A stretch of 64,000 nt of DNA from Escherichia phage mistaenkt (MN850587.1); one strand, 5' to 3'; numbered from the stretch's first letter, positions 1,704 to 31,673 are shown. Made by a program: numbers and translations. Notes: generated by a model not told the origin, from the sequence alone.

Positions 1704-1844
1704 TTACTTGTTTTGATTCTGTATTGCAAGTAGTTTTTTATCAAAAAGTTTATCTGAGATTTCACCAATGATGAGCATTGCTAATGGCAACACAACAGAA
1801 ACAATCATACCGCAAAGGATAGGGTTTTTAATGATATCTAACAT
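1704..1844 (-). CDS. Small hydrophobic protein (46 aa), not in ORF track
   Basis: ATG at 1844-1842 preceded by conserved leader CCTAAACTGGAGAATCACAAA; hand translation MLDIIKNPILCGMIVSVVLPLAMLIIGEISDKLFDKKLLAIQNQNK. Confidence 0.35.
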   Translation of the reverse strand: MLDIIKNPILCGMIVSVVLPLAMLIIGEISDKLFDKKLLAIQNQNK

Positions 1845-1978
1845 TTTGTGATTCTCCAGTTTAGGAAGTTGCCTTTTGAAGATACTATATAGATATGATT
1901 AAACCTTTGCAAGTACTTTTTACGCTTATCTATAAAGAATCTTTTAAGTGAATCCTTTTAGATAAACCCCCTCGAACA

Positions 1979-2007
1979 AATCTATCAATGTCAAGGGGTA
2001 TTGTCAA
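1979..2007 (-). promoter_or_regulatory. Candidate sigma70-like promoter (TTGACA-17-TAGATT on minus strand)
   Basis: -35 at 2007-2002 and -10 at 1984-1979 with 17 bp spacer, inside the 195 bp gap between ORF 2040-2381 and ORF 1704-1844. Confidence 0.4.
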
Positions 2008-2039
2008 CAGTTTTTTCAAAGAATTTTGTAAGTCATTGA

Positions 2040-2381
2040 TTAGCTTATAAAGATTTTTTCTGTCTTGACATAGGTCATTTTTTGGTCTTTGAGTAAATCA
2101 CTCCAGATTAAAGCGGCAATGTGACCATAGCCGGATTCACGTAATATTTTCATTGTGTTAACTTTTGTTTCAAATCGTGTTGCATAGTATTCACTGTTTA
2201 AGGTTGTTTTATTCCCTTCTTTGTCAGTGTGAACTATACGCATCACATGAAACGGGCTAACATCCTCGCCGCGATTCCATTGCTCAAAGTATTTTAGGCA
2301 CTGTAAAGGCGACACTTTATCACTTACTTTTGTAGACCAAGATGAATTTTCTTTATCAGTAATTATGGTTACATGTGCCAT
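2040..2381 (-). CDS. Hypothetical early protein (113 aa)
   Basis: ORF with conserved leader. Confidence 0.6.
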   Translation of the reverse strand: MAHVTIITDKENSSWSTKVSDKVSPLQCLKYFEQWNRGEDVSPFHVMRIVHTDKEGNKTTLNSEYYATRFETKVNTMKILRESGYGHIAALIWSDLLKDQKMTYVKTEKIFIS

Positions 2382-2448
2382 TTTCAGATTCTCCAGTTTA
2401 GGAAGTGGGCTTGATAGATACTGTAACTTTACTTAATACGGTTTACAA
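2382..2448 (-). promoter_or_regulatory. Intergenic cassette type B with sigma70-like promoter (TTGTAA-17-TACAGT)
   Basis: -35 at 2448-2443, -10 at 2425-2420, then AAGCCCACTTCCTAAACTGGAGAATCTGAAA-ATG. Confidence 0.45.
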
Positions 2449-2578
2449 TAGATTTTTTCTTTAAATGTAGTTTTTCTGCTTTTTTCATGATTTTTACTAG
2501 TAACATCATGATAAATGAGAAAATCATCTCTGAGAATACAGGGTTGTTAAAAACTGTCTCAATAGTATGCGTCATCAT
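2429..2578 (-). CDS. Small protein (49 aa), not in ORF track
   Basis: ATG at 2578 preceded by conserved leader CCTAAACTGGAGATTCAAATG; hydrophobic core FSFIMMLLVKIM. Confidence 0.3.
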   Translation of the reverse strand: MMTHTIETVFNNPVFSEMIFSFIMMLLVKIMKKAEKLHLKKKSIVNRIK

Positions 2579-2652
2579 TTGAATCTCCAGTTTAGGAAAG
2601 CTCTTTATCTGGGGCTTATGGTATCAAGCTTTTAAGCCCCATGTAAAGTACT
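2579..2652 (-). promoter_or_regulatory. Intergenic cassette type A-prime (GGGGCTTAAAAGCTTGATACCATAAGCCCC inverted repeat, TTTACA -35-like box, conserved leader)
   Basis: Near-identical copy at 6346-6430; TTTACA at 2647-2642 on minus strand. Confidence 0.5.
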
Positions 2653-29005: not shown

Positions 29006-29506
29006 TTATTCTCTCTCGTTAAGTTTCATGATTTTATGGATTCTCTTCTCAGCATCTTCATAAGTCTCTTTGGTAAGAAACTTGATTGCTGCAATGTTTG
29101 CATTGTAGAAGAGTCGAAGCTTGGAGTCAATCCTTTTTGTCATGACGTCAAACTTATGTTGGAGGTTAGCTTCTCCGTAGACCAACCCACCTCGCGTATA
29201 ATAAGTTTGCACAATATAGAAGTCAAACTCTTTTTCACCGAAAGTTTCAATATCTTTCTTAATGTACTCAGAAGAGGTCTGGTAAACCATCCAGTCACTC
29301 TCTTTTGTCACAATCTTACGTCTGGCCTTTCCAGCTACTTTCTTCTTGGTGACATTGTTAAACTGCTTCTTACCAATGTAATACTGTCCAGTCTTTTTGC
29401 AGTACACTAAGTAAACGAAACCAAAATACTTAGCGGGGTCAATCTCCCCGCACAGTGAAATCCAATGCCCATATTCAGGGCAATTGCCAAAACCTTTAAT
29501 CTTCAT
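29006..29506 (-). CDS. GIY-YIG family endonuclease (putative homing endonuclease)
   Basis: FGFVYLVYCKKTGQYYIGKK matches the GIY...YIG motif; 166 aa; inserted between the exonuclease gene and downstream genes. Confidence 0.6.
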   Translation of the reverse strand: MKIKGFGNCPEYGHWISLCGEIDPAKYFGFVYLVYCKKTGQYYIGKKQFNNVTKKKVAGKARRKIVTKESDWMVYQTSSEYIKKDIETFGEKEFDFYIVQTYYTRGGLVYGEANLQHKFDVMTKRIDSKLRLFYNANIAAIKFLTKETYEDAEKRIHKIMKLNERE

Positions 29507-30536
29507 TCATAACAGGCTCCCAACCATATTTAGCAAATGTGAAGTCATCTTTCGGATTACGCTCTTGATAGGCAATCCAGAAGTGCTGGTGCATAAGTTC
29601 AAGAGGTGTTCTTGTGACCACTTGACCATCCCATGATTCATAAGTATATGACTCTTTCTTAGCGTAAAGTTCATAGATAGCATCAAGACACTCTTTGTAA
29701 GTCTCTTTACCTTCCAGAGCGTTCATTACAGCAACTTTCCCTGCACCCTTAAGGCCAAAGTAGTTATCTGCGTTGTCTCCTGCTACAGCTTGATAGCAGA
29801 GGAATTTGAAGCCTACACCAACAGTCTTTTTAGCTTTCGGCTTAGACTTGATAGGGCAATCCCAAATATTACCTACGTTACCGTCTGCAATGAAAATCAG
29901 AGGGGCTTTCTCGTAAGTCATATCAATACAGTAAGTTCCTTCCGCTTGGCGAAGGTCTTTATCAATACTCATAAGAGCAGCCTTCTTACCCATCTTCTCA
30001 GCTTTTGCAATAACAATGGAGTCAGCTTCAAAGCCACCTTTGAGAAGCTTAAACTCAGGTCGTGACAGAAGATACTCACGACAAGCAACTAAATGCGTAG
30101 GGGTTACTGATTCTTTACGGTTACCTTGATACTGGTGTTCAAGACCTTTAATGTCTTTGTGTTTATGTACACCTTTCTCAGTGAGGTATCCCATCCAAGT
30201 TCGCTCTTTACCAACAACTTTCAACCATTCCTGAAGAACTTGTTGAGTTGCCATAATAGCTTCTTTTTCACTCTTAGCTTCTTTCCAAGATTGTCTTTCC
30301 CATTCATCTTCATCGAATGCAAGACCAAGTTCCTCTGTTAGAACTCTCTGGTCAGATAGCCATTGATTAGCATCTTTAGCACTTTCAAAGGCATCAGACT
30401 CTTCAGCAGTGAGTTTATTCACATACTTGTACTTTGCTTTCTCAACGACACAGGCTCCCTTGTAAGCAATACTGTCAGAGTCAATAAAGACATGTGTCAC
30501 AGTATCTGGGAGTTTTGTTAACGTGTACTTTTCCAT
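29496..30536 (-). CDS. 5-prime to 3-prime exonuclease / flap endonuclease (FEN family)
   Basis: N-terminal VFIDSDSIAYKG and later SIDKDL, GVGFK blocks; track start 30548 is TTG; ATG at 30536 has a GGAG SD 7 nt upstream. Confidence 0.8.
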   Translation of the reverse strand: MEKYTLTKLPDTVTHVFIDSDSIAYKGACVVEKAKYKYVNKLTAEESDAFESAKDANQWLSDQRVLTEELGLAFDEDEWERQSWKEAKSEKEAIMATQQVLQEWLKVVGKERTWMGYLTEKGVHKHKDIKGLEHQYQGNRKESVTPTHLVACREYLLSRPEFKLLKGGFEADSIVIAKAEKMGKKAALMSIDKDLRQAEGTYCIDMTYEKAPLIFIADGNVGNIWDCPIKSKPKAKKTVGVGFKFLCYQAVAGDNADNYFGLKGAGKVAVMNALEGKETYKECLDAIYELYAKKESYTYESWDGQVVTRTPLELMHQHFWIAYQERNPKDDFTFAKYGWEPVMNED

Positions 30537-30551
30537 TTGTATCTCCAATAC

Positions 30552-30580
30552 GAAAAAGCCCCATACTAAGTACAGGGCTT
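30552..30580 (-). terminator. Hairpin terminator
   Basis: AGCCCC-loop-GGGGCT; minus strand followed by TTTTTCGTATTGGAGAT. Confidence 0.5.
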
Positions 30581-30598
30581 TGTAGTAACTACTGAGAA

Positions 30599-31450
30599 TT
30601 AATCTTCAGTATCGAAATCTTCTTCGTCGTCGTCATCTGGGTCTGGCATATCATCGTCGTCATCGTCAGAGTTAGTATCTTCAGAATCCTTCGCATCTTC
30701 TTCGGTGATTTCACCGTTATCTTCAACGCCATCCAGACCAAGCAGAGCCAGTTCATCTTCATCCAGTTCAGGCTCACCGTTACCACCTGTACCACCAGTG
30801 TACGGAACCAGAGTATCAATGATAAACTGTTCCTGAATCGGCTTCGTCAGAACGTTGCTTTCAAAAGTGTAGAAGTGAGTTGCAAGAATCACACTACCAA
30901 ATGAACCGTTGCCGACTGCGATATCTGGGTGAATAACATCATAAGTTTTGTCGTCATCGTGTTTGTCAGAATGTTGAGCCTTGATTTTCTTCATCGGCTG
31001 TTTAACTGCAACACGCTTACCGTTAACTTCTTCAATCAGCATAACAGGGAATGACTGTTTCGCTGTCCAGACTGCACCATCTTTATAAGCAGCAGCACGA
31101 CTTACTTTCAGAATGTGATAAGTGTCTGCTTCAAATGGTGGTTTGCAACCGAACTTCTCTTCAAAGTCATCTGCATCAACAGCTTCAGTTGTAACCTTAT
31201 CCCAACCATCAGGATTCTTTTTAGACTTGGTGAACTCTTTGAAGAGTTTGTTACCATCTTTTGCCAGAATTGAAACACTGTAGTTACAATCTTTGCCTGG
31301 GAATTTCTTATCAACTGATTTACCTTTTCCCGGACGTGGAATAGTATTCAGGTAGTAGAACCAAACATCTTTTAGCAAGTAACGCAGAGTCTGACGTTCA
31401 GTACCGTTGTATTTTTCTACCGGAGATTTCATTTTAACAACTTTAGACAT
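30599..31450 (-). CDS. Putative single-stranded DNA-binding protein with acidic C-terminal tail
   Basis: C-terminus DSEDTNSDDDDDDMPDPDDDDEEDFDTED; adjacent to primase-helicase; start moved to the ATG at 31450 (MSKVVKM), which has an RBS. Confidence 0.55.
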   Translation of the reverse strand: MSKVVKMKSPVEKYNGTERQTLRYLLKDVWFYYLNTIPRPGKGKSVDKKFPGKDCNYSVSILAKDGNKLFKEFTKSKKNPDGWDKVTTEAVDADDFEEKFGCKPPFEADTYHILKVSRAAAYKDGAVWTAKQSFPVMLIEEVNGKRVAVKQPMKKIKAQHSDKHDDDKTYDVIHPDIAVGNGSFGSVILATHFYTFESNVLTKPIQEQFIIDTLVPYTGGTGGNGEPELDEDELALLGLDGVEDNGEITEEDAKDSEDTNSDDDDDDMPDPDDDDEEDFDTED

Positions 31451-31535
31451 TCTTAAATCCTCTTTCTCAAAATTATTTCTTTCAAACTTGAAGGAGTACA
31501 ATCTTACAGACTTCATACTCCCTTGTCAAACACTT

Positions 31536-31673
31536 TTAAGCAGATTTTTTAGCTGCTTTACGTGCTGTCTTACCAGTGCGAACACGTTTTGCTTCGTAGT
31601 GTGCAGCAGATTTACCAGCAGTTGCTTTCAGTGAATCGCCAAATACTTTTTCAAACGCTTTAGAATGTTTCAT
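31536..31673 (-). CDS. Small basic Ala/Lys-rich protein (45 aa), not in ORF track
   Basis: ATG at 31673 with GGAGAG SD; hand translation MKHSKAFEKVFGDSLKATAGKSAAHYEAKRVRTGKTARKAAKKSA. Confidence 0.4.
   Translation of the reverse strand: MKHSKAFEKVFGDSLKATAGKSAAHYEAKRVRTGKTARKAAKKSA

Follow-up and report, generated by a model that had tools for sequence, protein, structure and literature searches.

The stretch of DNA analysed here, referred to as the window, comprises 64,000 nucleotides of Escherichia phage mistaenkt (MN850587.1), an Ounavirinae coliphage of the Felix O1-like, Suspvirus type. We took up six short open reading frames on its minus strand, numbered O1 to O6; O1 to O5 fall below the 60-aa cut-off applied to ORFs and O6 encodes 38 aa (Table 1). 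For O1 to O5 the coordinates, ATG starts, lengths and character (hydrophobic O1, acidic O4, basic Ala/Lys-rich O5) given by the initial annotation were all reproduced, every one on the minus strand. The possible membrane peptide O6 likewise exists as an open frame; however its start lies at 21041 rather than 21040, and the gap that holds it measures 156 nt (20950-21105) rather than 157.

Table 1. Short ORFs and associated signals in the window, with PHROG family matches
Feature	Position	Strand	Description	PHROG match
O1	1704-1844	minus	46 aa, ATG, GRAVY 0.80	phrog_7482, E 3e-29
O1 promoter-like site	1912-1884	minus	TTGCAA-17-TATAGT, promoter scan	
O1 leader/SD	1865-1853	minus	CCTAAACTGGAGA, exact motif copy	
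O2	2429-2578	minus	49 aa, ATG	phrog_31746, E 2e-28
O2 early promoter	2647-2618	minus	TTTACA-18-TACCAT with TG, promoter scan	
O2 leader/SD	2596-2584	minus	CCTAAACTGGAGA, exact motif copy	
O3	6431-6592	minus	53 aa, ATG	phrog_14219, E 3e-21
O4	8599-8772	minus	57 aa, ATG, pI 4.1	phrog_26590, E 4e-34
O6	20925-21041	minus	38 aa; 41 aa from upstream ATG at 21050	phrog_20082 'membrane protein', E 2e-22, profile positions 14-54 of 54
Intrinsic-terminator-like hairpin	21061-21096	minus	16-bp stem + T-run; abuts nrdD, 20 nt before O6 start	
O5	31536-31673	minus	45 aa, ATG, pI 10.6, 11 Ala + 10 Lys	phrog_4424, E 5e-29

The minus-strand gene array between positions 1 and 36000 contains 11 gaps of at least 110 nt. 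Six of these are occupied by O1 to O6, in agreement with the proposal that the small ORFs fill gaps in otherwise tightly packed operons, and three are artefacts of the ORF filter, which discarded overlapping genes (o-spanin and others). With the six in place, the stretches without an ORF are 6811-7311 (501 nt) and 1845-2039 (195 nt, the rest of the gap of O1). The good starts claimed for the set are present in O1 to O5, each of which has a Shine-Dalgarno (SD) sequence spaced 6 to 9 nt from its start: GGAGA for O1 (9 nt upstream of the ATG), O2 (6 nt upstream) and O5, AAGGG for O3 and GAGGA for O4. They are not present in O6, which has a weak SD (GGA only) downstream of a terminator. The ATG of O4 lies 1 nt beyond the upstream stop and its 3' end runs 17 nt into the downstream gene, the ATG of O3 lies 11 nt beyond the upstream stop, and O5 shares an ATGA overlap with the gene upstream. 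By these stop/start arrangements O3, O4 and O5 are coupled in translation to the genes beside them.

The description of these ORFs as unannotated is correct for the 60-aa track and incorrect for GenBank, PHROG and the annotation of relatives. The exact peptides of O1 to O5 already have GenBank entries as hypothetical proteins (from phages mistaenkt, KPS64 and SUSP1/SUSP2), while the protein collection searched does not contain the exact O6 peptide. Homologues are annotated in SUSP2, SUSP1, Michonne, Silverhawkium, P219 and UAB_Phi87, and each of the six matches an existing PHROG family HMM, end to end for O1 to O5. The six are thus already known as hypothetical proteins of relatives and are not a discovery; since relatives list them, their recovery here is ordinary annotation gap-filling. 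The peptides gave no function-giving match in Pfam, NCBIfam or PDB, and fold searches were non-specific (E > 0.1). For Felix O1, transcripts of 102 ORFs have been detected by RT-PCR, and the peptide data do not extend to non-structural proteins (PMC3185647).

O1 and O2 stand out by their expression signals. The leader/SD motif CCTAAACTGGAGA occurs in 14 exact copies against 0.11 expected by chance, all on the minus strand and 6 to 9 nt ahead of an ATG. Twelve of the 14 precede ORFs of at least 60 aa and the other two precede O1 and O2; no copy was found before O3 to O6. Both ORFs combine their own leader/SD at this spacing with a sigma-70-like promoter, and the cassette of O2 is nearly identical to the one ahead of the gene at 6088-6345. 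O1, whose hydrophobic core spans residues 9-27 (KD 2.67), has matches in 35 phage records, one of them Vequintavirinae Av-05 (58 % identity), with dN/dS of 0.09-0.24 and a third-position excess at p = 0.0003-0.03; its exact peptide is KPS64_gp112 (QHR67892.1). O2, identical to mistaenkt_6, is found in 19 records at 79-100 % identity and differs from SUSP2 gp103 by 7/3/13 substitutions at the three codon positions (dN/dS 0.10). Because their distribution among relatives is patchy, O1 and O2 are accessory early genes, and each forms an independent early cassette in which a sigma-70-type promoter of its own is joined to a leader/SD common to other early genes.

Comparison across relatives, the check proposed in the initial annotation, came out in favour of coding: the frames are kept, substitutions are in excess at third positions and dN/dS is below 1. 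Frames of O1 to O6 are kept in relatives as low as 45-60 % protein identity. In every homologue compared (5 to 9 per ORF, 2 for O2) frame 0 has no stops and the other two frames have 2 to 10. Of 20 divergent comparisons, 15 show a significant third-position excess, and NG86 dN/dS against relatives is mostly 0.08-0.30. Protein matches outlast DNA similarity, with 45-60 % identity persisting at pS 0.6-0.8. Informative comparisons are fewest for O2, with one moderately divergent pair, and O6, with three. The frame and substitution patterns support the reading of all six as genuine protein-coding genes in keeping with the operon layout.

The case that calls for most care is O6. Its open frame extends from 20925 to 21050 and overlaps the start of the gene at 20551-20949 by 25 nt. 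The 38-aa start is favoured because in PC79-13 a stop falls just before the second ATG of the frame. The 156-nt spacer downstream of nrdD might instead be conserved as regulatory DNA or RNA, in which the terminator and a possible internal promoter would sit alongside the leader and SD that serve the next gene, with the O6 frame either incidental or a leader ORF that brings ribosomes to the overlapping downstream start. The strong hairpin upstream, conserved in 257 records and given a terminator annotation in Mijalis, Michonne and ASO1A, fits such a spacer, as do the weak SD, a promoter-like TTAAGA-16-TAAAAT inside O6 and the location of the downstream gene's GAGGA SD and ATG within the last 25 nt of O6. 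As the tail of O6 overlaps that SD and start, part of its conservation could stem from them, and the overlap persists though the next gene differs (25 nt in Felixounavirus, ATGACTAA overlap in Mijalis). In addition, O6 was left unannotated in SUSP2, CHB7, Silverhawkium, EP1, Mijalis and adrianh, and its exact peptide is missing from the protein collection, as stated above.

The behaviour of the frame itself nevertheless points to a peptide. None of the 14 relatives examined interrupts it, whereas stops occur in the other two frames, 5 to 8 of them in the +1 frame. The O6 region is present in about 144 of 257 records, with the homologue annotated in P219, UAB_Phi87 and vB_SflM_004. Against adrianh, the differences per codon position are 1/4/10, so that 10 of 15 fall at third positions, and dN/dS is 0.12; some close relatives give 0.6-1.5 on 4 to 6 substitutions, too few to inform. 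The core LGFxLGLLY is kept in the divergent phiSUSP1, Mijalis and ESh22 versions despite diverged DNA and tails (dN/dS 0.29-0.53), good SDs are present in phiSUSP1 and Mijalis (AGGAA) and in ESh22 (GGTGG), and the peptide matches a PHROG family of membrane proteins. We therefore regard a purely regulatory spacer as unlikely, though it retains real weight. O6 would then be a 38-aa membrane peptide translated from transcripts that run past the nrdD terminator, with coupling to the gene that follows.

For the six ORFs as a whole, it could be argued that some or all are chance frames in spacers conserved for promoters, terminators and leaders. Conserved non-coding cassettes are abundant in the early region, third-position excess is absent in O3 versus Klebsiella Z1 and in O4 and O6 versus ESh22, and shuffling each gap yields an ATG ORF of equal or greater length on the coding strand in 0.2-8 % of shuffles, so that length by itself is modest evidence for genes. 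Against this, tblastn recovers protein homologues without nucleotide similarity even in other phage families (Av-05, Kayfunavirus), indels are multiples of three, dN/dS stays far under 1, the O4 domain occurs in an in-frame fusion to a larger protein, and supplying the protein in trans rescues knockdown of the O4 homologue. The frame and substitution comparisons appear largely to refute chance frames, which we consider very improbable.

O1, O2 and O6 each contain one hydrophobic 19-mer (KD 1.8-2.7) followed by a flank of net charge +1, +7 and +5, respectively, from which we infer single-pass membrane peptides. O1 and O2 would sit in the inner membrane with their basic tails, strongly basic in O2, probably cytoplasmic, and they probably contribute to membrane targeting or to takeover of the host. 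Neither Felix O1 (PMC3185647) nor SUSP1 (PMC11879866 supplement) has an identified holin, and the single hydrophobic helix with a charged C-terminus in each peptide could suggest that Felix O1-like phages use one or more of them as their missing holin, antiholin or lysis-timing factor. This is highly doubtful: none is universal (O1 in 35, O2 in 19 and O6 in about 144 of about 257 records), none adjoins the spanins (9040-9550) or an endolysin, and O1 and O2 lie behind early promoters, whereas late expression is expected of a holin. Group-wide conservation, lysis-gene linkage and late expression were thus not found for O1, O2 or O6. Known single-TM holins such as T4 T are also much longer than these three peptides.

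O3 (mistaenkt_16) and the gene at 6604-6810 form a two-gene early unit, in which O3 comes second and would be translated just downstream of the 68-aa early gene. It is found in 62 records, among them Klebsiella Z1 and T7-like Kayfunavirus (51 % identity), and is thus shared with the early regions of T7-like phages; its dN/dS is 0.28-0.53. An AF2 model with six strands (pLDDT 69) predicts a small beta-barrel, for which the best PDB matches, Hfq, BrxR-WYL and Tudor, are weak (E 0.1-0.6, TM 0.4-0.55) and the BFVD matches are uncharacterised phage proteins only. O5 belongs to the replication module, where it is flanked on one side by the primase-helicase and a 93-aa gene and on the other by a 283-aa gene whose product has an acidic tail. 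Its 254 phage records cover essentially all Ounavirinae and also Yersinia P778, with dN/dS of 0.08-0.37 and 14 of 19 and 18 of 31 differences at third positions, and it is 100 % identical to SUSP1 agp053. This basic peptide is coupled to the gene that follows the primase-helicase, and its probable ligands are nucleic acid or components of the replisome. O4 is found in 31 records and in Michonne makes up the C-terminus of a fusion protein, the 150-aa gp093; its dN/dS is 0.12-0.15 against phiSUSP1 and Michonne, and the AF2 model consists of two helices forming a hairpin (pLDDT 92).

Homologues of O3, O4 and O5 were covered by a CRISPRi-ART screen of SUSP1 as agp096, agp089 and agp053 (PMC11879866). 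The O3-type agp096 and agp053 were called 'Not Fit', a class for which the authors acknowledge a false-negative rate (PMC11879866), and the O3 homologue and O5 are probably dispensable in the laboratory. The O4-type agp089 was called 'Fit' (fitness 1.89, p = 0.016), and a single crRNA against it led to small plaques that complementation rescued (PMC11879866). This phenotype was measured in SUSP1, another phage than that of the window, and shows that the O4 homologue is needed for efficient infection. O4 itself is translationally coupled and acidic, with a predicted helical-hairpin fold, and most likely acts by binding a protein partner.

Overall, O1 to O6 are very probably short protein-coding genes of Ounavirinae that were missed only through the 60-aa cut-off. 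Within the first 35 kb of the phage such a cut-off loses about six real genes, and the repeated promoter/leader motif together with cross-phage codon analysis offers reliable recovery of short genes. Among the six families a known phenotype attaches to O4 alone, through SUSP1 gp089 and efficient infection, and current understanding of phage biology is unchanged. A more ambitious reading would make O4/gp089 a small acidic hairpin effector directed at a specific host factor, which it would neutralise, and, separately, would place an O1, O2 or O6 peptide in a Felix O1-like holin or lysis-timing system. The evidence for both parts is composition, fold and the published knockdown, and we consider the reading improbable; if true, an O4-type effector would be required for Ounavirinae infection.

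Several known systems provide a frame for these genes. SUSP1 gp089 (AVU07_agp089, YP_009199340; Felix01p017; phrog_26590) is 57 % identical to O4 over 51 aa. Both belong to the same PHROG, follow an 89-aa gene located after the spanins and encode small acidic proteins. They differ in length (53 versus 57 aa, the acidic C-terminal end of O4 being longer) and in a CV versus CC motif, and SUSP1 has an extra 134-aa gene (gp090) after gp089 that the window lacks. In Felix O1 itself, Felix01p017, FelixO1p245 (phrog_4424) and FelixO1p220 (phrog_20082) are positional and sequence homologues of O4, O5 and O6, respectively; the gene overlapped by the O6 homologue encodes a 66-aa membrane protein in Felixounavirus (FelixO1p221) and a 132-aa soluble phrog_4382 protein in the window. 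The O3 homologue of the T7-like Kayfunavirus PRF-SP1 (gene 00003, Class I; 51 % identity over 47 aa) is 57 aa long with a different C-terminus, and it too is an early small protein, because its position falls between gene 0.3 and the gene for RNA polymerase. Finally, the early cassettes resemble the PeSLs (promoter-early stem-loops) of T4-type phages (PMC2839356, PMC4122927) in that a repeated early promoter within an inverted repeat is combined with a conserved leader. The cassette sequence of the window is unrelated and the phage subfamily different, but like PeSLs the cassettes flank many small variable ORFs, O1 and O2 included, and their content varies among close relatives, O1 being missing from SUSP2 and SUSP2 gp093 from the window. 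The cassettes of the window may play a role in recombination or shuffling.

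The observation of six short open reading frames (O1 to O6) is confirmed, and the conclusion that they are protein-coding is well supported. Among the six, O1, O3, O4 and O5 have the strongest coding evidence; for O2 it is good and for O6 moderate. These genes are not new: they are already catalogued hypothetical proteins, three of them with published knockdown data. Each of the six peptides matches an existing PHROG end to end. RefSeq SUSP2 lists homologues of O2, O3, O4 and O5 as gp103, gp092, gp087 and gp054, while O1 is annotated in Michonne, Silverhawkium and Av-05, and O6 in P219, UAB_Phi87 and vB_SflM_004 as 'membrane protein' or 'similar to FelixO1p220'. 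GenBank proteins with the exact sequences of O1-O5 exist, those of O2, O3 and O4 under Escherichia phage mistaenkt, so this phage, or one almost identical to it, is very probably the source of the window; an exact-sequence look-up that found all five of these did not find the O6 peptide in the protein collection.

O1-O5 lie on the minus strand where the initial annotation had placed them, each with an ATG start, and their composition is as it had described: O1 is hydrophobic (GRAVY 0.80), O4 acidic (pI 4.1) and O5 basic (pI 10.6) and Ala/Lys-rich. The sixth ORF had been proposed as a possible 38-aa peptide in a 157 bp gap. This peptide exists, starting from the second in-frame ATG (21041), but the open frame runs over 20925-21050 and encodes 41 aa; the gap, most of which is occupied, measures 156 nt after nrdD.

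Coordinates of the six short ORFs and of the leader copies that precede O1 and O2
Feature	Position	Strand	Description
O1	1704-1844	minus	46 aa, ATG
O2	2429-2578	minus	49 aa, ATG
O3	6431-6592	minus	53 aa, ATG
O4	8599-8772	minus	57 aa, ATG
O5	31536-31673	minus	45 aa, ATG
O6	20925-21041 (38 aa), or 20925-21050 (41 aa)	minus	25-nt overlap with gene 20551-20949
CCTAAACTGGAGA copy of O1	1853-1865	minus	exact 13-mer
CCTAAACTGGAGA copy of O2	2584-2596	minus	exact 13-mer

The first 10 kb of the window match Ounavirinae (Felix O1-like) phages, 257 records in all, with Suspvirus SUSP2 as the top match (94% identity, 82% of the query). The window has a G+C content of 36-42% and its minus strand carries genes from 1 to about 36000. 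Mapping minus-strand ORFs of at least 60 aa over 1-36000 leaves 11 gaps of at least 110 nt, six of which are those that the short ORFs had been said to fill; three others are an artefact of overlapping genes dropped by the ORF filter. Unfilled stretches are 6811-7311 and the remainder 1845-2039. When the entire window was scanned with Rfam and for tRNAs, no family or tRNA was returned, so none of the gaps is explained by a known RNA. ORF length by itself is weak evidence for coding: in shuffles of each gap, 0.2% (O4) to 8% (O1) of trials contain a coding-strand ATG ORF at least as long as the observed one.

Conservation, one of the checks that the initial annotation had proposed, supports coding. 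A tblastn search of O1-O6 against 50,697 phage records identified homologues of O1 in 35 records, including the Vequintavirinae phage Av-05 at 58% identity, of O2 in 19, of O3 in 62, including T7-like Kayfunavirus early regions (51%) and a Klebsiella podovirus (33%), of O4 in 31, and of O5 in 254, covering the entire subfamily and also Yersinia P778. O6 yielded only 9 records when low-complexity filtering was applied; DNA of its region is found in 144 of the 257 records, and an unfiltered local tblastn gives a protein match in adrianh, phiSUSP1 and ESh22. Codon alignments were built from 21 homologous loci. Every homologue keeps the frame, with 0 stops in frame 0 versus 2-10 in the other two frames, and indels are multiples of three. 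The excess of third-position substitutions is significant in 15 of the 20 comparisons with at least 10 differences; by codon position, differences number 11/5/25 for O1 versus Silverhawkium, 3/2/14 for O5 versus ESh22 and 1/4/10 for O6 versus adrianh. Nei-Gojobori dN/dS is 0.09-0.24 (O1), 0.10 (O2), 0.28-0.53 (O3), 0.12-0.67 (O4), 0.08-0.37 (O5) and, for informative pairs only, 0.12-0.53 (O6).

For O1 and O2, a second line of evidence is independent of homology. Comparing the 100 nt upstream of each early gene revealed a repeated cassette in which a sigma-70-like promoter (TTTACA, 17-18 nt, TAAGAT or TACCAT, extended -10 TG) lies inside an inverted repeat and is followed by the leader ...CCTAAACTGGAGAttcaaaaATG. 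The 13-mer CCTAAACTGGAGA occurs in 14 exact copies in the window against 0.11 expected, all on the minus strand from 730 to 6830 and all with an ATG 6-9 nt downstream. Twelve of them stand before ORFs of at least 60 aa, the remaining two before O1 and O2. A promoter scan also places promoter-like sites just upstream of both. This shows that O1 and O2 share the organisation of the other early genes.

The main rival to a coding reading concerns O6 only; on this view, O6 would be a regulatory spacer or leader ORF following nrdD that yields no functional peptide. A 16-bp terminator-like hairpin and T-run (21096-21061) lie 20 nt upstream of O6, whose start signals amount to a GGA before ATG 21041 and nothing before 21050. 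The motif LGFxLGLLY is retained across O6 versions that differ at their N- and C-termini. Between the two starts, the 38-aa form is preferred over the 41-aa form because in PC79-13 a stop codon directly precedes the second ATG.

The nrdD-nrdG spacer itself (window 20950-21105; loci L005, L008, L009 and L004) is a hot spot of insertion and replacement. CHB7, Silverhawkium and phiSUSP1 carry HNH or homing endonuclease genes directly 3' of nrdD, and Felixounaviruses have a different set of small genes there, as does ESh22 with three extra small ORFs. The terminator hairpin after nrdD is kept in 257 of 257 records. The TTG start listed for nrdD (21106-23349) probably lies too far upstream: in relatives the gene is annotated with 2142-2145 nt (about 714 aa), a length corresponding to an internal MVKVQIIKKNG... 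start in the window.

O1, O2 and O6 each contain one strongly hydrophobic 19-residue segment. The C-terminal flank is strongly positive in O2 (+7) and O6 (+5), and only +1 in O1. Under the positive-inside rule, this suggests a single-pass N-out/C-in topology for the three peptides. The holin of this phage group has not been identified (PMC11879866; Felix O1 genome paper, PMC3185647), and one of these membrane peptides could be assigned that role. Such an assignment is unlikely, because their distribution among relatives is patchy, they have no linkage to lysis genes and they are apparently expressed early. In the window, the i-spanin and o-spanin genes overlap (9040-9309 and 9203-9550) and the o-spanin has a lipobox-like LLILMSGCS. 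In SUSP2, an additional gene of 52 aa, gp084, sits immediately before the i-spanin and after the 154-aa gp083; gp084 is absent from the window, where the gap is only 52 nt.

The ATG of O3 lies 11 nt past the stop of gene 6604-6810 and has AAGGG 9 nt before it. O4, preceded by GAGGA, begins 1 nt beyond the stop of its upstream neighbour and shares 17 nt with the gene downstream. O5 is preceded by GGAGA, and its start overlaps the stop of a 93-aa gene in an ATGA. SUSP1 (NC_028808) was screened gene by gene in a CRISPRi-ART study (PMC11879866). The O4 homologue agp089 (63586-63747, phrog_26590, Felix01p017; 57% identity) scored 'Fit' (1.89, p=0.016), a single crRNA gave small plaques, and complementation rescued its phenotype, as it did for two other genes (PMC11879866). 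Scored 'Not Fit' were agp053 (-0.06), which is 100% identical to O5, and the O3 homologue agp096 (0.001) (PMC11879866). O1 and O2 have no SUSP1 homologue, and O6 of SUSP1 fell outside the screen because it is without annotation there. The reading that O5 is conserved as a promoter of the downstream 'Fit' gene was rejected, since third positions account for 14 of 19 and 18 of 31 substitutions and dN/dS is near 0.1.

Searches of Pfam, NCBIfam and PDB sequences gave nothing above threshold for any of O1-O6; a weak DUF7438 match to O4 (E 0.007) was below cut-off and set aside. Word-indexed searches of large protein collections with O5, O3 and O4 returned close Ounavirinae relatives only (16, 2 and 5 clusters). 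The O4 profile HMM, searched exhaustively, gave five matches: two are repeat or low-complexity artefacts and two are plausible remote relatives (120 and 77 aa, without annotation) with the domain C-terminal. The O4 domain also forms the C-terminus of the 150-aa Michonne gp093 (phrog_25740), an in-frame fusion. AlphaFold2 models O4 as a two-helix hairpin (pLDDT 92) and O3 as a six-strand beta protein (pLDDT 69). Foldseek matched the former to generic hairpins only (E >1), and fold searches gave the latter non-significant resemblance to Hfq, WYL and Tudor barrels, so no fold family was assigned to either. All genes neighbouring O1-O6 belong to function-unknown PHROGs without a Pfam domain; context therefore gives the module only (early region, downstream of spanins, nrd cluster, replication module). 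Within the window, 30599-31516 is a 305-aa ORF-finder frame whose real start is probably ATG 31450 (MSKVVKM..., 283 aa), the start used in the SUSP1 and SUSP2 annotations. The homologue in SUSP1, the function-unknown agp054, scored strongly 'Fit'. The 283-aa protein has a long acidic C-terminal tail (DDDDDDMPDPDDDDEEDFDTED) that recalls the C-termini of phage single-strand-binding proteins.

The 501-nt stretch 6811-7311, flanked by early gene 6604-6810 and by the gene for a macro-domain phosphatase (7312-8094), has no convincing minus-strand ORF. It is conserved in 236 Ounavirinae records at >=80% coverage, and its core, about 100 nt long (roughly 7064-7166), matches Erwinia phages too. Within the stretch lies a 17-bp terminator hairpin (7282-7241), the counterpart of Felix O1 t13, and the GenBank record of phage Andreotti starts inside the equivalent stretch. 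Possible identities are a regulatory region, a non-coding RNA and a genome terminus. A plus-strand gene is annotated at the equivalent place in Michonne (gp098) and Silverhawkium (gp124); in the window, 6916-7233 is an open frame on the plus strand (105 aa, TTG start). The 195 nt of O1's gap that remain at 1845-2039 contain a promoter-like TTGACA-17-TAGATT with TG (2007-1979) and, at 1930-2019, a TTG-initiated ORF of 29 aa. An ORF of 29 aa is called at the corresponding place in the PHANOTATE-based annotations of pEC-M719-6WT.1 and ESh22.

Before most CCTAAACTGGAGA copies, an inverted repeat GGGGTTATC...GATAGCCCC encloses the promoter; a different hairpin, GGGGAgggagacTTCCCC, precedes three copies. 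The architecture of these early cassettes resembles that of the PeSL mobile regulatory cassettes of T4-type phages, and may account for the differing cassette content between close relatives.
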